From the IMG/VR virus record IMGVR_UViG_2778261529_000003: DNA of 14,733 nucleotides; one strand, written 5' to 3'. Position 1 is the first letter of the stretch; the number at the start of each line of letters is the position of its first letter. Positions 1,369 to 14,733 of this stretch are shown here, in pieces. The notes under the pieces were generated by a model. It searched no databases. It saw only the letters and a list, made by a program, of their open reading frames with translations, and was not told where the DNA came from. A program made the position numbers and the translations under genes. Origin of the DNA: a virus (taxonomy: Duplodnaviria; Heunggongvirae; Uroviricota; Caudoviricetes).

Positions 1369-1444
1369 GCCGATATAGCTCAGTTGGTAGAGCAGCGCAT
1401 TCGTAATGCGAAGGTCGTAGGTTCGACTCCTATTATCGGCACCA
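1369..1444 (+). tRNA. thrW: tRNA-Thr (anticodon CGU), 76 nt including CCA
   Basis: GCCGATA acceptor stem paired with TATCGGC, D-arm GCTCAGTTGGTAGAGC, anticodon loop TTCGTAA (anticodon CGT), T-arm GGTTCGACTCC, 3' CCA at 1442-1444. It lies directly downstream of proA as in E. coli. Confidence 0.93.
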
Positions 1445-3751: not shown

Positions 3752-3766
3752 CGCACCATACCGCAT

Positions 3767-3910
3767 ACCCTGAGGGTGATTTACTGTTACCCTGAGGGTA
3801 TTTTTTTATCTTCCCCGTCAATTTTACCATCACCCTTAGGGTAGATTTCCTCCCGATTACCATCACCCTTAGGGTAGATTTCCTTCCGGTAACCATTAGG
3901 CCTGAGGGTA
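3767..3910. repeat. array of five CC(C)TNAGGG palindromic sites including a 26-bp direct repeat (3825-3850 and 3858-3883)
   Basis: ACCCTGAGGGT at 3767-3777 and 3789-3799; TACCATCACCCTTAGGGTAGATTTCC twice, 33 bp apart; CCTGAGGG at 3901-3908. Lies in the intergenic region upstream of alpA. Confidence 0.7.
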
Positions 3911-7078: not shown

Positions 7079-7369
7079 ATGAAAAAGAAAAATTCTGGCT
7101 TTACTGCCAGCGGTCTCTCTCGGCCTGAAATCAGACACGGAGATATTTACCGCGACACCAGACGTGGGGGACGAGTGGTTATTCGTCACGTTACGCCAGG
7201 CAATATCACCTACCGCCGTGAGGCTTACGAATATGACTGTGTAATGCCGCGCCGTCAGTTTGAGCGTGATTTTATTCTGGTTGAAAACAAACAACAGGCG
7301 GTGGCGAGACGTGCAGCCACGAATATTAAAAAAATCCGGGCAATGTTGGTTGCGGGAGGTAAGAAGTGA
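7079..7369 (+). CDS. hypothetical basic protein (96 aa)
   Basis: ATG 7079. Stop TGA overlaps the GTG start of the downstream replication gene (GTGA), indicating the same operon. Confidence 0.5.
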   Translation: MKKKNSGFTASGLSRPEIRHGDIYRDTRRGGRVVIRHVTPGNITYRREAYEYDCVMPRRQFERDFILVENKQQAVARRAATNIKKIRAMLVAGGKK

Positions 7370-9171
7370 AAAACGCACCGAATTTAAAATATCAGCCGAA
7401 GGATAAATTCACCGAGGTAATCATTTTGGCCGGGACGGATGCTTACGCCCATGCTCAACACTGGATTGAAAGCGAAGGACGAAAACACGGCGATAACGTA
7501 CCACCTGTTTACCTGGGGCCGAAGCAACTGGCAGACCTGGCGAATATCCGCATTATTGACGAGAAACGCCGCTTTGCGCGTGTCTATCTTGCGGGGGAGA
7601 TCGAGCCAATCCAGATCAATGCTATCGCTGAAAAACTGGCGCTGGCTGGCGTACAGGACGCGAAATTATACAAAGGTATCACCGATCGGGAGCCGGAAAA
7701 CTGGCGCGACTACCTGCAACGGATCCGCGAACAGGCAGAGAGTGGGGAAGTTTCGGCGATGAAATTAGCCACAAAAAATATTGACCTACCCAGGCCAGCA
7801 CTAAATCAGATGGGAGCCAGCCAGAGAGGGGAAGTGTTACTTGAATATTATGGAAGAGCACTGGCTATAAATGATGATTCTGATGTAGTTCACCATTACA
7901 ACGGAATTGTCTGGGTGCCTGTATCTGATAAGGAACTCCAGCGGTCTATGGCGAAGATTTTTATTGATGCTGGAATCAGTTATTCGCAAAACGCCATTAA
8001 ATTTGCCGTAGACACAATGAAATTGAGCCTGCCTGTTATGGGCGGGGCTGACAGGAATCTTATTGGATTCAGTAACGGGGTATTTGATACCAGGACAGGA
8101 AATTTTCGGGAGCACAACAAAAATGACTGGTTGTTAAATGCCAGTGAATTACCGTTCAGCCCACCAGCAGAGGGGGAAACGCTGGCAACACATGCGCCGA
8201 ATTTCTGGAAGTGGTTGCGTCGTTCGGTGGCAGATAATGATCGTAAAGCTGATCGCGTACTGGCGGCATTATTCATGGTACTGGCGAACCGGTACGACTG
8301 GCAGTTATTCCTTGAGGTAACTGGCCCAGGCGGAAGCGGTAAAAGTGTGATGGCGGAGATTTGTACCATGCTGGCTGGTAAGGCCAACACAGTATCGGCA
8401 AGCATGAAGGCGCTGGAAGACGCAAGGGAACGCGCGTTAGTCGTTGGCTTTTCGCTGATTATCATGCCGGATATGGCCCGCTACGCTGGAGATGGTGCAG
8501 GAATTAAGGCAATTACTGGCGGCGACAAGGTGGCAATCGACCCGAAACATAAAGCCCCCTACTCCACACGTATTCCGGCGGTAGTGCTGGCAGTAAACAA
8601 TAACGCCATGTCATTCAGTGATCGCAGTGGAGGGATCTCGCGTCGTAGGGTGATATTTAATTTCTCTGAGGTCGTACCGGAGAACGAACGCGATCCCATG
8701 CTGGTGGAAAAAATAGAAGGCGAACTGGCGGTAGTGATTCGCCACCTGCTTACTCGTTTTTCTGACCAGGATGAAGCCAGACGTCTGTTATATGAGCAGC
8801 AGAAATCAGAAGAGGCACTGGTGATAAAACGCGAGGGTGATTCACTGGTGGACTTTTGCGGCTATCTGATGTCGTTGGTTAAATGTGAAGGAATGATGGT
8901 GGGCAATGCGGAAATAGTGCCATTTAGCCCGAGGCGGTACCTGTATCATGCTTATTTAGCCTATATGTCAGCGCATGGCCTGGGAAAACCAGTATCACTG
9001 ACACGCTTTGGTACAGATATGCCAGGAGCTATGGCGGAATACGGAAAGGAGTATAAGCGGGCTAAATGCACTAAAGGCCAGGATAAAGGGCGAGTGATAA
9101 CAAATGTTCTGTTAGATGATGATGCTGATGGTTGGTTGCCAGCAGCAACAGGGATTAACGACAGAACATAA
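7366..9171 (+). CDS. replication initiator: D5_N domain plus SF3 helicase (P4 alpha C-terminal-like primase/helicase family)
   Basis: 601-aa ORF, GTG start with GGAGG upstream. Walker A GPGGSGKS; D5_N-like segment NGVFDTRTGNFREHNKNDW. Followed immediately by an iteron array. Confidence 0.88.
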   Translation: MKNAPNLKYQPKDKFTEVIILAGTDAYAHAQHWIESEGRKHGDNVPPVYLGPKQLADLANIRIIDEKRRFARVYLAGEIEPIQINAIAEKLALAGVQDAKLYKGITDREPENWRDYLQRIREQAESGEVSAMKLATKNIDLPRPALNQMGASQRGEVLLEYYGRALAINDDSDVVHHYNGIVWVPVSDKELQRSMAKIFIDAGISYSQNAIKFAVDTMKLSLPVMGGADRNLIGFSNGVFDTRTGNFREHNKNDWLLNASELPFSPPAEGETLATHAPNFWKWLRRSVADNDRKADRVLAALFMVLANRYDWQLFLEVTGPGGSGKSVMAEICTMLAGKANTVSASMKALEDARERALVVGFSLIIMPDMARYAGDGAGIKAITGGDKVAIDPKHKAPYSTRIPAVVLAVNNNAMSFSDRSGGISRRRVIFNFSEVVPENERDPMLVEKIEGELAVVIRHLLTRFSDQDEARRLLYEQQKSEEALVIKREGDSLVDFCGYLMSLVKCEGMMVGNAEIVPFSPRRYLYHAYLAYMSAHGLGKPVSLTRFGTDMPGAMAEYGKEYKRAKCTKGQDKGRVITNVLLDDDADGWLPAATGINDRT

Positions 9172-9198: not shown

Positions 9199-9540
9199 GG
9201 TAGACGGTTGGTAGACAGATTCACTTAACTCTCTACCAACCATCTACCAATTAATATTTTGAATTATAAAGATATTTTCAATGTGGTAGAGAGGTGGACA
9301 GTTATTTCTATATTCCTAAACCACGGGGGGTATATAAAAAAACAGATAGTTAAGGGTTCATTTTTTAAATTTCTCTTTTAACTGTCTACACTGTCTACCA
9401 TTTAGTAAAAATCATTAATTATCAATGTATTAATGCGGTAGACAGTTAGTAGACAGTTTGCAGATTGTTTTTTTGTTATGAGTTAATAACATTAAATAAA
9501 TCAATAAATTATATCGGTAGACAGTTGGTAGACAGTTGTA
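9199..9540. repeat. iteron-type replication origin: about 12 copies of GGTAGACAGTT in pairs at 11-bp phasing, both orientations, separated by AT-rich tracts
   Basis: Pairs at 9199-9220, 9232-9250 (inverted), 9284-9305, 9380-9400 (inverted), 9436-9460 and 9515-9540. AT-rich candidate unwinding element around 9305-9370. Confidence 0.8.
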
Positions 9541-9543
9541 ACG

Positions 9544-10086
9544 ATGGGGCAAAGCATGACTAAGCTGACCATTAACAGAAAACCGAAAGGCATTTATGGC
9601 ACGCCGCAGAAAACGACGCAGGTGGCACAGGAGCAGGATAAAACCACGTCGGCGCATAAAGTGATGCCCGGTAACCAGAAAGCGCAGCAGAAGCCCACAG
9701 GGGCGACACCGTGGCGGCATATGACCAAGCGCCAGCGCAAAAACCGCAGGCGCATTAACCGCCTCACTGAGTTGTGGCCTGAATTATTCAGTCGGGAAGC
9801 ACCGAAGCCGCTTAAGGTGGGGATATTCGACGACCTGATGCAGGATCTCGCCGTCAGGGGGCTGGCATTCGGTCCAGGGGCATTGCGTGCGACGCTGGCA
9901 TCTTATGCACAGTGTCCGCGCTATTACCGCGCCTTAATGGCTGGTGGGGTACGCTACGACCTGAAAGGCCAGCCGTGCGGCGAGGTGACACCACAGGAAC
10001 AACAGGACGCAGAAACGCGGCTGGTGGCGCTGAATGAGAAGCGCAAACGTCAGCGCCGGGTAGCAAAGGAGAAAACAGGCGCATGA
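9544..10086 (+). CDS. FinO/ProQ-domain RNA-binding protein (RNA chaperone-like)
   Basis: 180-aa ORF (alternative start ATG 9556 with GGGG upstream). Core LTELWPELFSREAPKPLKVGIFDDLMQDLAVRGLAFGPGALRATLASYAQCPRYYRALMAGGVRYDLKGQPCGEVTPQE closely resembles the ProQ N-terminal/FinO domain. Basic tail. Confidence 0.7.
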   Translation: MGQSMTKLTINRKPKGIYGTPQKTTQVAQEQDKTTSAHKVMPGNQKAQQKPTGATPWRHMTKRQRKNRRRINRLTELWPELFSREAPKPLKVGIFDDLMQDLAVRGLAFGPGALRATLASYAQCPRYYRALMAGGVRYDLKGQPCGEVTPQEQQDAETRLVALNEKRKRQRRVAKEKTGA

Positions 10087-10745: not shown

Positions 10746-10784
10746 TGGTCGTGATTTTTTGGTGAAAAAAGAGAGGTGGTAAAA

Positions 10785-11363
10785 ATGCCAGCAAGCAAAG
10801 AAGATTTGCGATTAAAACTGATGGAGGTGGTTAACGCTCTGTCAGAGTCGCAGGGAAGCACTCCGCAGGAGATTATCGAAATTCTGAATGCGATCCCCGC
10901 ACAGGATTTCATAAAAGAGGATAACGCGAATCAAAACATCGTCGCGTCAGTCGAAGATGAATCCTCACTGGCAGAAGCCCAGGCTAAAGCGGATTCCGCA
11001 TACAGCAATATGGGCCGTCGCGCTCCGGCCCCGTTTGCTGGTGAAAAGTCGATGGATTACCGCAAACGTGCATTAATTGGCGCACAGAAGCTGGCTAAAA
11101 AATTCAGTGATGTGGATATTCGTTCCGTTTCAGATTCTGCAACGCTGGCGGTGCTGGAAGATCAGATTTACAAGGCTGCTCAGGAAAGTGCTCAGTGGGC
11201 CGTGGAAAACACGCCGGGCCATTTGGGTAAAACCGTAAGAATGGATGAAGCCGGTCGTCGTATTACTGAATATCAAGGAGATCCGAACGTCTGGCTGAAC
11301 GCCTTCAAAATCCCTCCCCGTCGCCTGGTCAAAATTAACGTTGCAAGCCTCGCGGGGGCATGA
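10785..11363 (+). CDS. hypothetical protein (192 aa)
   Basis: ATG 10785 with GAGAGGTGG upstream. Acidic, helical-looking; no family recognised. Confidence 0.55.
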   Translation: MPASKEDLRLKLMEVVNALSESQGSTPQEIIEILNAIPAQDFIKEDNANQNIVASVEDESSLAEAQAKADSAYSNMGRRAPAPFAGEKSMDYRKRALIGAQKLAKKFSDVDIRSVSDSATLAVLEDQIYKAAQESAQWAVENTPGHLGKTVRMDEAGRRITEYQGDPNVWLNAFKIPPRRLVKINVASLAGA

Positions 11364-11380: not shown

Positions 11381-11410
11381 GCCCTGCCGGATTTGGCGGG
11401 GCTTATTGCT
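11381..11410 (+). terminator. weak hairpin (GCCCTGCC / GGCGGGGC, one G-U pair) followed by TTATTGCTTAT
   Basis: Read directly. Poor U-tract, so may be an attenuator or RNA processing site rather than a terminator. Confidence 0.3.
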
Positions 11411-11427
11411 TATAACCGGATAACATT

Positions 11428-12099
11428 ATGCTTTTAACAGAAATTGAGGCGGCGAAGCAGGTTCGGGACGGACAGCTACCGTCGCCTTATCAGTTTTCCA
11501 ACATGTGGCTGGTTAACCTGCGTATCACAGGAACCGGAATGGCCTACCGCGCCGAAGAAAAAGAATTTGTCTGGCGTTCACCGCAAACTTATCTCAATCC
11601 GCAGTTCCTGGAACGTTGCGCCGGAGTACCCGTCATTATCGACCATCCCGAAAGCAAAACCCTTGAAGACGTGGGCGAACGGTCGCGCATTATTGGCACC
11701 GTCATGTTGCCGTATATTCGCGGTGACGAGGTGTGGGGCGTATGCCGGATTTACGGGCAGGAAATCATCGATTACATCCAGAAAGCACGGGGGGAGGTAT
11801 CCACCAGCCCGTCGGTTGTGTTTTGTGGTGCGTCCGGTGGGGCTGAAGTTCCTGATGTAATGGGCGAGGACAATTTTTTTATTGAGGGTACGCCATTTCT
11901 TATCGATCACGTTGCGCTCGTGCCGCTTGGTGTTTGGGATAAGGGCGGGAAACCATCGGGCGTGGAAGTAACAACGCCGACAGCAGAAGAACAGCTTGCC
12001 GGAATGGTCCGGGACGTTATTGATGCGGCCTGCAAGCCAGCCCTGGAAAAACTGGAAGAAATATCCGGGCGGCTGGCTCAACTGGAAAAAGAAGGGTGA
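11428..12099 (+). CDS. hypothetical protein (223 aa)
   Basis: Protein-like composition in this frame only. The competing 11444..11860 alternative-frame and 11578..12138 antisense ORFs have implausible composition. No obvious Shine-Dalgarno at ATG 11428. Confidence 0.5.
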   Translation: MLLTEIEAAKQVRDGQLPSPYQFSNMWLVNLRITGTGMAYRAEEKEFVWRSPQTYLNPQFLERCAGVPVIIDHPESKTLEDVGERSRIIGTVMLPYIRGDEVWGVCRIYGQEIIDYIQKARGEVSTSPSVVFCGASGGAEVPDVMGEDNFFIEGTPFLIDHVALVPLGVWDKGGKPSGVEVTTPTAEEQLAGMVRDVIDAACKPALEKLEEISGRLAQLEKEG

Positions 12100-12105
12100 G
12101 TCATA

Positions 12106-12633
12106 ATGCTGATGAGTAAGGCAGAATATGCCAAACACAAAGGCGTAAGCCGCCAGACAGTTTACGACTGGATCGATAAAGGCGAAGTGGTCATGTCCGG
12201 TAAAAAAATCGATGTGGAAGCGACAGAGCAGCGGAACAGCCCACCTGCACAGGGAAAAGACACAGTTTCTGAAATGTGGCCAGAGAGAACGCTGGAAATG
12301 ACGTGGGGCGAGTTCTGGAAAGCAGTTAAGGCCAGAGGCGGTAAAATTCCTGCGCCAGCAACGGACGAGGGCATACAGCAGCGTGTGCTGGATGCAGCCG
12401 GGGAATTAGGCTGGGAAGTGCACTTTCTTGATGATGGTGCTATCTGCCTTGAGGATTGCGACGGGCAGCATTACTTTGAACAATACAATTTGCGAGGTAA
12501 TGCCAGGCTGGCAATTCGTATGCTGCGTTGCGAACTCTGCTATGTTGCAGGTGATTATCCCGATGAACTGGAATCATGGAGTGAAGCCGGGCTAAACGCC
12601 CTGGCTGAATGGGAAAAATCAGACCATCAATGA
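12106..12633 (+). CDS. Nu1/terminase-small-subunit-like HTH protein; candidate packaging-redirection (Rpp-like) factor
   Basis: 175-aa ORF. N-terminus MSKAEYAKHKGVSRQTVYDWIDKGEV has the Nu1-type winged-HTH pattern (compare lambda Nu1 KKQLADIFGASIRTIQNWQEQG). Last gene before a repeat array. Confidence 0.55.
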   Translation: MLMSKAEYAKHKGVSRQTVYDWIDKGEVVMSGKKIDVEATEQRNSPPAQGKDTVSEMWPERTLEMTWGEFWKAVKARGGKIPAPATDEGIQQRVLDAAGELGWEVHFLDDGAICLEDCDGQHYFEQYNLRGNARLAIRMLRCELCYVAGDYPDELESWSEAGLNALAEWEKSDHQ

Positions 12634-12635
12634 CA

Positions 12636-12851
12636 TCAAAAAGTGTCAAGTTGAGCAGCTTGCCAGGTTGACACTTTACACTCTGAACGCGAAAAAGTGT
12701 CAACCTCGCTGTAAGCCCCGCCATTACTGGGTTTGTGCCAGATTTACCACGTCAAAAAGCCGAAAAAATCGCGAAAAGTGTCAAGTTGCTATGCTTAGAA
12801 ATGCTAAGGTTTGATAAGGTTTTTCGCGAAAAAGTGTCAAGTGTGTCAACC
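12636..12851. repeat. array of at least five (GCG)AAAAAGTGTCAA sites, one inverted, candidate binding sites for the adjacent HTH protein (cosB/pac-like)
   Basis: Copies at 12638-12653, 12668-12677 (inverted), 12689-12705, 12771-12788 and 12825-12841, plus a half-site TGTGTCAACC at 12842-12851. Confidence 0.65.
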
Positions 12852-13035
12852 GCGCCGCTTTAGAAAACTTTATGTGCAGATCGTTGGATGCATCTGTCAA
12901 AACTTGCCACCCACCAGCACCGCCAGCGGGGATTTTTGGCTACACGCGCTCTAAGTAACAGTTGCTTCAGTGCGTTACATACGTTGGAAGTGTTATAACT
13001 CAAGTTTTTGAGACAAAGTCAGAATTGTATGAATT

Positions 13036-13088
13036 TGTCTATAGCCGTCTACTCAAGTTTTCTACATAATATAAGGAAATAGCATGTT
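13036..13088. other. degenerate copy of the att-proximal arm sequence found just downstream of thrW
   Basis: Collinear anchors TGTCT, 6 nt, GTCTACTCAAGT, 22-23 nt, GCATGTT are shared between 1451-1502 and 13036-13088. ACTCAAGTTTT also occurs at 12999-13009. Confidence 0.5.
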
Positions 13089-13125
13089 GTTTAATTAATG
13101 TACGATAATTCTGAAAGAGTAACAT

Positions 13126-13953
13126 ATGATAAACTTAGATATGGATGTTGTGGTTGGACATGGGCAGAACGATTTTGAAGAATTAGAAATGAATTCCGGC
13201 ATAAAGGTTTTTGCTGGAGCTTCTGACATCACCCAAATTACAACAAGCACTATTTTAGATGATTCAGTCCCCAAAAAATCAACCTCTATACATGGGCTTA
13301 GGAATATGTTCAAACATACATTTGATGGATCGTTTGGACAAAATTTTGAACTTAGAATTGATGATCCTGAAAAGATAAAAAGATTTAATGAAATTGGCAG
13401 GGGTGTTTTTTTTGATGTTATGTCATATTACATCTCTAAAGGAATGGGAATAGCTCACCATCTTAAGAGCCAGAAAGCAATCGACTTAGTAGAGCGTCTT
13501 AAACCGCTTGAAAAACAACTTTTGATAAGAATTCAGGAACCTATACAGAATTTACATAAAACAGTTGAGAAACAAAAATATAATGTACTTCTGAGAAGAA
13601 GAACACCAACTAAAAAATTAGTTGTTGCTAAAATGGATACGCAGACGCTCTTCAATATCAATGTAGAGCATGAATCTGCTCAACCAGTAGAAGAAAATGT
13701 TATTATAACTAGGTTTAATATGTTAACAGGAACTGGTCGATTGTTATTAGATAGACAGTCAGATTCAATTGCCTTTAGACACCATCTTAATTGGGAACAT
13801 GTATTGCAGTCTCAGAAAAATAAGTTTTCAAGGAATCTTGATAGGAATAACAGAGGTGGTAAAGACGCTTTTATACCTATAACCATTTCTGCTTATGAGT
13901 TGCGCGATCATATTGGAGAGCTAAAGGCTTATATAATTAGAGAAATATTGTAA
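13126..13953 (+). CDS. hypothetical soluble protein (275 aa), first gene of an AT-rich cargo operon
   Basis: Long ORF in strongly AT-rich DNA, K/N/I-rich codon usage unlike the island core. Stop TAA 13951-13953 directly abuts the next ATG. No family recognised. Confidence 0.65.
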   Translation: MINLDMDVVVGHGQNDFEELEMNSGIKVFAGASDITQITTSTILDDSVPKKSTSIHGLRNMFKHTFDGSFGQNFELRIDDPEKIKRFNEIGRGVFFDVMSYYISKGMGIAHHLKSQKAIDLVERLKPLEKQLLIRIQEPIQNLHKTVEKQKYNVLLRRRTPTKKLVVAKMDTQTLFNINVEHESAQPVEENVIITRFNMLTGTGRLLLDRQSDSIAFRHHLNWEHVLQSQKNKFSRNLDRNNRGGKDAFIPITISAYELRDHIGELKAYIIREIL

Positions 13954-14733
13954 ATGAAGATGCCCTCAATCAAAGTTATTTCACTTATATTAATAGCTAT
14001 TGTATGGTATTTTTACTTTTCTCATTTCAATCATTGGGATAGCCCGTTAGATATCTTTAATGCTAGCAAATGGATGGGTTTTTCCAATGATAAAGGTGAT
14101 TGGGGCACTTTCGGGGATTTTGTAGGAGGTGTGCTTAATCCTATCTTGACCTTCATTACAATTGTTATGCTCATTAATTCCTTGAAACTTCAACGAGAAG
14201 CAAACGAGCAACTAATTAAAGACGAAAGAAGACAAGAGAAAGACGTTCTTCTAAAACGGTTTGAAGACGGTTTTTATAACCTTATCTCTTCAGAAAGAGA
14301 GGAGTTTAGTTGTTTTACTATTAACATTAACGGAAAAGAATACCGCTCATCTGCTGCTGTTAGTGAATTGGAAGAGGCAATATGGGCTTTTATTGAGAAA
14401 CAAATAGATGAAAAAGGAGCTTGCGAAATTGAGGATGTTAAAAATTACATAAATAAAATTGATGAGGATTCATCTATGGCAATATTTTCCATGGTGCGAT
14501 GTGTATATGTTGTTTTTAAGGTTGTTAAGGATAAATGCCCTGAAGAACATCAAGATTACTACTTAGATATTTTTATGAATATGTTACCAGTTAAACTGGT
14601 AAATTTAGTTGCTATTGTGTCTGTGTATATGGACTGGAAAAACGTAAAATATATTATTGATGGTGGAAAAGGATTTTCGGATAATGAAGCAGTTAAAGAA
14701 TATATTAATACTTGGAAGGAGTTTCATGAATAA
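13954..14733 (+). CDS. hypothetical membrane protein (259 aa) with two N-terminal transmembrane helices, candidate effector
   Basis: Hydrophobic segments VISLILIAIVWYFYFSHF and FGDFVGGVLNPILTFITIVMLINSL, then a charged, probably helical cytoplasmic domain. Zero-nt intergenic spacing from the upstream gene. Confidence 0.7.
   Translation: MKMPSIKVISLILIAIVWYFYFSHFNHWDSPLDIFNASKWMGFSNDKGDWGTFGDFVGGVLNPILTFITIVMLINSLKLQREANEQLIKDERRQEKDVLLKRFEDGFYNLISSEREEFSCFTININGKEYRSSAAVSELEEAIWAFIEKQIDEKGACEIEDVKNYINKIDEDSSMAIFSMVRCVYVVFKVVKDKCPEEHQDYYLDIFMNMLPVKLVNLVAIVSVYMDWKNVKYIIDGGKGFSDNEAVKEYINTWKEFHE

Follow-up and report, generated by a model that had tools for sequence, protein, structure and literature searches.

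In phage lambda, Nu1 and its cosB site (R3-I1-R2-R1), together with the switch between lambda and phage 21, show that the recognition helix of the small terminase subunit (TerS) sets packaging specificity, and in the Staphylococcus aureus pathogenicity islands (SaPIs) a satellite-encoded small terminase acting with the island's own pac site redirects the large terminase of the helper, with no cohesive-end (cos) site needed. For the Gram-negative phage-inducible chromosomal islands (PICIs), redirection of packaging by the Rpp protein together with a divergent cosB was shown experimentally in the Escherichia coli island EcCICFT073 (Fillol-Salom et al. 2019, PMC6739421). The DNA analysed here, referred to throughout as the window, is a stretch of 14,733 nucleotides from the Caudoviricetes record IMGVR_UViG_2778261529_000003. 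It encodes a protein of 175 amino acids (aa) with a TerS-type helix-turn-helix (HTH) at its N-terminus and carries an array of GTGTCAA repeats directly downstream of the gene. A first-pass annotation had put this pair forward as a candidate packaging-redirection module, and the proposal emerges from our study as the best explanation of the evidence: protein and array together probably represent the packaging-recognition module of the island, with DNA binding and involvement in packaging, for this lineage, read from sequence comparison.

The 175-aa protein and its repeat array

Gene and array are closely associated across genomes. In 27 loci chosen by protein similarity alone, the motif AGTGT[CA]AA occurred at 3.2 copies per kb between −50 and +600 of the gene end compared to 0.067 copies per kb elsewhere (48-fold), and 13 of the 21 outlying copies represent arrays pushed away by inserted genes. 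Approached from the side of the motif, a scan of IMG/VR yielded 67 loci, and the 175-aa gene adjoins the array in approximately 48 of them. More than 10 genera have retained the pair, down to ∼36% protein identity, and many of the islands that possess it are devoid of the DUF2213 gene.

Within the window, all six GTGTCAA heptamers are located inside 12643-12849. The 10-mer core AAAGTGTCAA is present in five exact copies, four on the plus strand and one on the minus strand, where 0.04 would be expected (0 of 200 shuffles). The earlier count of at least five motif copies directly downstream of the gene is thus upheld, by five exact cores and one additional GTGTCAA between 12640 and 12849. The motif as it had then been written stands as the 10-mer core and fails as a 12-mer: the longer sequence has three exact copies, one with a single mismatch and one inverted with two mismatches, a yield (5 matches with up to 2 mismatches vs 2.3 expected) not significant alone, and the inversion of the second repeat (R2) had gone unmentioned. 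Across genera the array retains the layout R(+), R(−), R(+), box, R(+), phased TAAG elements, R(+). The box core GCCRTTACTGG was found within the array in the window and in 40 fetched loci, even at ∼50% protein identity; no phage counterpart was found for the conserved box, and a degenerate 15-mer scan of IMG/VR returned unrelated contigs among the matches listed; TWAG(G)-like pairs also occur 3' of the distal repeats in other genera. Conserved box and phased TAAG elements, both with no known counterpart, could be partner or cleavage sites.

The 113 homologues of the 175-aa protein come from Enterobacterales only and almost all are unnamed. They hardly vary over residues 1-42 and are variable thereafter. 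The AlphaFold model obtained with the homologue alignment (pLDDT 88.5; the single-sequence model, pLDDT 41, was not used) starts with a winged HTH, which a disordered linker (residues 46-55) connects to an α/β C-domain. The N-terminal domain is of the TerS DNA-binding type, as the first-pass annotation had stated: residues 1-42 gave a match (E=1.5e-7) to the PHROG family phrog_57, 'terminase small subunit', and the best phage match to the HTH is the Nu1-type TerS of the cos phage vB_SspM_BZS1, whose start is 47% identical over residues 3-40 (38 aa; tblastn 2e-4 in all phages, pairwise 4e-9). Pfam HTH_17 scored 20.2 bits, under the cut-off of 27. In fold comparison the best match was an excisionase, Pukovnik Xis (7.1), followed by a TerS DNA-binding domain (7lxs, 6.5), lambda TerS (6hn7_B, 6.4) and RppC (6hn7_A, 5.8). 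Foldseek matches in PDB and BFVD were confined to the HTH, leaving the C-domain without confident relative.

Judged by its sequence, the protein beyond the first ∼43 residues is neither TerS nor Rpp, and the description as Nu1-like accordingly holds for a head of the TerS (Nu1-partner) type and not for the remainder. Assignment as TerS was rejected on the grounds that the phrog_57 match ends at residue 42 and that BLASTP and hhalign align residues 1-43 only. From the usual setting of a TerS gene (cosQ-cosN-cosB or terL), the cosB-like array is there and no cosN or cosQ was found; the window open reading frames scanned against Pfam or PHROGs include no large terminase. Assignment as Rpp is likewise not supported: searched against all PDB sequences, neither the protein (phmmer, E up to 1) nor the family profile (E up to 10) matched RppC (6hn7), of RppA, RppB and RppC the one compared, or any TerS, and the Rpp arrangement of a helper cosQ/cosN kept with divergent cosB was found in sister lineages only, not in the window. 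An excisionase or recombination directionality factor was discarded given the HTH_17 score below cut-off, the second domain of ∼115 aa and an AlpA already encoded. For the whole protein, tblastn against 50,697 phage records returned no match, and neither PADLOC nor NCBIfam gave anything. With the C-domain as query, exhaustive HMMER searching of 1.84 billion cluster representatives retrieved 18 representatives, nearly all from the same family; an 837-aa repetitive protein considered as a relative looks spurious. No description of the protein family was found in the literature.

Sister satellites and the phiNP/BZS1-type cos

Eight of the motif-found loci (L038, L061, L066, L069, L086, L090, L093, L098) are without the 175-aa gene and encode proteins of 186-209 aa whose similarity to that of the window is confined to the HTH (hhalign 95-97%, residues 1-43). 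L066 and L098 encode a TerS of full length (phrog_57, E=2.7e-23, residues 1-180) whose C-terminus aligns with phage TerS; for the L069-type, profile–profile comparison gave no support for homology to the C-domain of the window protein. The same HTH head with the same array is found in three protein architectures, across genera. In the eight loci the array is placed upstream of the gene and is itself preceded by ...GGGTCCTTCC-(∼22 nt)-CACGG GCATTGCGCGCC GCG, hence both sister architectures have it flanked by an exact phiNP/BZS1-type cosQ-cosN on one side and by the gene on the other. GCATTGCGCGCC is the annotated 12-nt cohesive end of Serratia phage BZS1, and Citrobacter phage phiNP as well as an E. 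coli prophage carry the same cos 5' of terS. The large terminase of these phages is gpA-type. A 130-nt cos profile detected all eight loci (4e-34 to 2e-27) as well as phiNP and the E. coli prophage (∼1e-27); BZS1, with its cos split by the linear record, was recovered in two halves (9e-15 and 4e-5). Nothing was detected by the profile in the window or in any locus with the 175-aa gene.

Recognition helix and repeat differ in parallel between the two groups. The phages combine the helix SRKTVT-W with a repeat GGTAACA that follows cosN in either orientation and numbers 8 copies in the E. coli prophage; the satellites combine SRQ(T/A)(V/L/I)Y(D/T)W with GTGTCAA. Because the same slot after a shared cosQ-cosN carries GGTAACA repeats in the phages, the array of the window is understood, on comparative grounds, as a cosB-type set of R elements with switched specificity. 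The cosB/pac likeness noted earlier gains substance here, for repeats of the same sequence occupy the cosB position between cosQ-cosN and the TerS gene of the sister satellites. As to the phages themselves, those of the phiNP/BZS1 type, with a lambda-like head and a Mu-like tail, have a cosB that comprises up to 8 GGTAACA repeats (L101:8999-9227 in the E. coli ECCTRSRTH03 prophage; also L029 and L100), and in BZS1 and phiNP additional copies extend into terS itself and are translated there as GN(K/R) repeats.

The absence of a lambda-type cosN, also part of the first-pass annotation, was confirmed within 2 mismatches across the window, and searches there for cosQ-cosN of the phiNP/BZS1, lambda and P2 types gave nothing above chance. 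One candidate, CAGGGGCATTGCGTGCGACG at 9875-9894, shares 16 of its 20 positions with the cosN region of phiNP/BZS1; it is located inside the ProQ/FinO gene with no cosQ upstream, the cos profile is silent on it, and the match is probably due to chance.

Proposed mechanism and rival explanations

From their co-occurrence, we suggest that several copies of the 175-aa protein would bind the six GTGTCAA elements via the TerS-type winged HTH (SRQTVYDW). Comparison with the phages identifies GTGTCAA as cosB-type R elements, whose placing and architecture are homologous to those of the phiNP/BZS1 GGTAACA array between cosN and terS, and the changes of K to Q and T to Y in the recognition helix would switch the specificity. 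The orphan C-domain may then recruit the helper terminase, with the effect that island DNA is packaged and not phage DNA. Given that cosQ-cosN was not found in the window lineage, cleavage could be site-less (headful-type helper), or could take place at the conserved box or at an unrecognised site. Regarding the helper, the DUF2213 scaffold-like genes point to phages of the Rac-SA53/Chronis type. The terminase of Rac-SA53 is Terminase_6N/Terminase_2, types that usually go together with headful packaging. BZS1 p06, which has the scaffold position, was considered as a DUF2213 homologue and is not homologous. In a more specific scenario, TerS head and R array became detached from cosN and the head was fused to an orphan adaptor that recruits the terminase of an unrelated, probably headful helper (e.g., Rac-SA53-type, the presumed source of the DUF2213 scaffold-like genes), giving a packaging site devoid of a cohesive end and a switch from cos to pac through a protein other than TerS or Rpp; we offer this tentatively and regard it as rather unlikely.

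Several findings weigh against packaging recognition as the function of the module. The likeness to TerS is limited to residues 1-43, and the C-domain is predicted as α/β as opposed to the helical oligomerisation domain expected of TerS or Rpp. A phiNP-type cos is present in 22 of 5426 complete E. coli genomes, compared to 167 with an at least partial match to the window module (query 11400-13100: DUF2213 gene, HTH gene, array), and the obvious helper is therefore rare. The helper candidates suggested by DUF2213 (Rac-SA53, Chronis, PdC23) are without GTGTCAA arrays, and the one TerS from a candidate helper that was compared, that of Chronis, is unrelated.

The same evidence needs to be read against other functions of protein and array. 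The 175-aa protein could be a transcription factor and the array its operators, serving the cargo or the end of the late operon and having no packaging role in this lineage. The HTH fold is indeed common to Xis, BldC, MerR and AlpA regulators, a homologue is labelled 'Repressor' in one database source, part of the motif reads, in reverse complement, TTGACA (the −35 hexamer of sigma-70), and the array is situated at the backbone/cargo junction, ∼12854, where similarity to other E. coli islands stops. However, no promoter-like −35/−10 pair was found within the array, and its location 3' of its own gene precludes autoregulation; cargo does not keep a fixed position relative to the array (an ABC-3C cassette lies between gene and array in Serratia aquatilis), and the array fills the cosB slot beside cosN in the sister lineages. 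Taken together, we consider the regulatory function improbable. Still less probable is a module that acts as decoy or interference device, a TerS head with no terminase-binding tail occupying the GTGTCAA cosB sites of competing, cosN-bearing satellites, or persists as the remnant of a cos that lost its cosN. It would explain why cos-bearing sister satellites use the same head and R elements, why the window lineage is without cosN and why the C-terminus is unrelated to TerS, yet conservation of the pair in more than 10 genera with a near-invariant HTH and a well-folded, conserved C-domain suggests a selected cis-acting site rather than a relic, and a pure inhibitor would be titrated by the island's own array.

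Clustered direct and inverted repeats with an HTH protein would suit origin iterons, a partition site or excisionase sites alike, and the top fold match is an excisionase. We nonetheless hold all three to be very unlikely: the usual PICI ori position is taken by the separate GGTAGACAGTT iterons, a ParA-type partner is not encoded, AlpA is encoded beside int, and ∼11 kb separate the array from the attachment site at tRNA-Thr, with ∼2 kb left to the far end in a complete relative, for which reason excisionase sites were rejected. The repeats R1, R2 and R3 might finally act as RNA, in the form of alternative hairpins in the 3' untranslated region that are perhaps bound by ProQ/FinO, a protein encoded on the island. 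The segment 12630-12715 folds at −27.7 kcal/mol (z = −3.99), a hairpin that is the trivial consequence of having the motif in inverted copies; R4-R6, all in direct orientation, lack anything to pair with, the invariant motif precludes a covariation test, no Rfam match and no terminator were found, and the neighbouring 124-nt element is unstructured. A function as RNA appears extremely improbable. Packaging recognition by protein and array remains the reading that we prefer.

Island setting and relation to known systems

By its gene content (Table 1), the window is identified as a PICI-like phage satellite of the Gram-negative kind, sited at tRNA-Thr. The assignment follows from tRNA-Thr, P4-type integrase, AlpA, D5_N/DUF5906 helicase, GGTAGACAGTT iterons, ProQ, PerC and DUF2213, and the composition typical of a PICI (int, alpA, pri/rep with downstream ori, 10-20 kb) is found. 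The complete relative (∼13.5 kb) sits between yicC and yicG.

Table 1. Positions of the module and of neighbouring features in the window
Feature	Position	Strand	Remarks
tRNA-Thr	1369-1444		
P4-type integrase; AlpA	after tRNA-Thr		AlpA adjoining int
AntA-domain protein; DUF4222 protein	after AlpA, before helicase		
D5_N/DUF5906/Pox_D5 helicase	7366-9171		
Iterons GGTAGACAGTT	9199-9541	both orientations	at least 8 copies; intergenic, directly 3' of helicase gene
ProQ/FinO and PerC proteins	after helicase		
Two genes matching different parts of phrog_6216	10776-11363; 11428-12099		one with DUF2213
Gene for 175-aa protein	12106..12633	+	TerS-type head and orphan C-terminal domain; ATG start, open reading frame list, translation
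N-terminal winged HTH	12106..12237	+	residues 1-44; recognition helix VSRQTVYDW
Orphan C-terminal α/β domain	12277..12621	+	residues ∼58-172; pLDDT >94
R1, AAAGTGTCAA	12640..12649	+	
R2, AAAGTGTCAA	12668..12677	−	inverted pairs with R1 and R3
R3, AAAGTGTCAA	12694..12703	+	
Conserved box GCTGTAAGCCCCGCCATTACTGGGTTTGTGCC	12708..12739	+	between R3 and R4; candidate partner or cleavage site
R4, AAAGTGTCAA	12775..12784	+	
Three TWAG(G) elements	12794..12819	+	CTTAG/CTAAGG/ATAAGG, exactly 10 bp apart
R5, AAAGTGTCAA	12831..12840	+	
R6, partial copy GTGTCAA	12843..12849	+	
AT-rich cargo after repeat array	13126-14733		275 aa (phrog_13337); at least 259 aa (phrog_8999)

The ori of PICIs is usually located directly after the helicase gene (10.1101/2022.07.18.500453), and the GGTAGACAGTT iterons are likely the replication origin of the island. 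Upstream of alpA, direct repeats at 3766-3889 (two copies of TACCCTGAGGGTGATTT and two of a 33-nt unit with 94% identity) resemble operators for the regulatory switch of the island. The two phrog_6216 genes probably form a scaffold-like capsid-remodelling module. They match the family in swapped order, the first its C-terminal part (409-544) and the second its N-terminal part (115-328), and the homologue in Rac-SA53/Chronis-type phages is a single protein of 430-550 aa encoded between the genes for portal and capsid.

The last repeat is followed immediately by the 124-nt element (12852-12975). Islands of several genera that do not have the window's cargo genes carry it where backbone and cargo meet, yet the closest E. 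coli relatives lack it. It is unstructured as RNA (z +1.76), and searches of phages and of Rfam gave no match. The cargo pair phrog_13337/phrog_8999 is also present 3' of the array in six IMG/VR contigs; the cargo genes have no match in Pfam or NCBIfam and just one marginal, non-significant match in PADLOC. One cargo was identified at this hotspot, an ABC-3C system. In Serratia aquatilis (L017:7121-10054), the cassette (SMEK, MC6, DUF2326/AAA_23) is inserted between HTH gene and array, and cargo is thus accepted on both flanks of the array. ABC-3C systems are regarded as anti-phage defence.

Lastly, the study has importance for how satellite DNA is marked for packaging. In the literature found, this has been worked out experimentally for one system of Gram-negative PICIs, that of Rpp with lambda or phi80. 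The candidate system described here would add a clear recognition code, SRKTVT-W/GGTAACA in the phage compared to SRQTVYDW/GTGTCAA in the satellite on the same cosQ-cosN scaffold, and one DNA-binding head placed in three different proteins. It also brings to light a widespread lineage, in many genera of Enterobacterales, that has kept the recognition array with no recognised cleavage site. The module borders a cargo hotspot, and its mechanism would therefore set the spread of the cargo genes; as a compact pair of cis-site and protein, it is a candidate for directing DNA into phage particles.

As with RppA/RppC of EcCICFT073 (PMC6739421), the island has its own cosB-type site distinct from that of the helper. 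The window protein has no sequence similarity to RppC, its orphan domain is predicted as α/β where Rpp has a helical dimerisation domain, and unlike EcCICFT073, which keeps the helper cosQ and cosN, the window island has neither in recognisable form; the related phages are phiNP/BZS1-type here and lambda or phi80 there. Compared to SaPI TerS, a full TerS homologue, the window protein is TerS-like in the DNA-binding head only, and headful packaging is a conjecture. With lambda Nu1 it has in common a winged-HTH TerS head and several R elements of mixed orientation beside the gene, whereas the R sequence and the C-terminal domain are different and neither an IHF site nor cosN was recognised. The closest correspondence is to TerS-cosB of phiNP/BZS1, through the 47% identical HTH and an array of similar size, in both orientations and with a common core xTxACA (GGTAACA vs GTGTCAA). 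The helix differs (SRQTVYDW vs SRKTVT-W), similarity ends at about residue 43, and the window array is downstream of the gene instead of upstream, with no cosN and no terL. In the sister satellites, the GTGTCAA array directly replaces the phiNP/BZS1 phage array after the shared cosQ-cosN.
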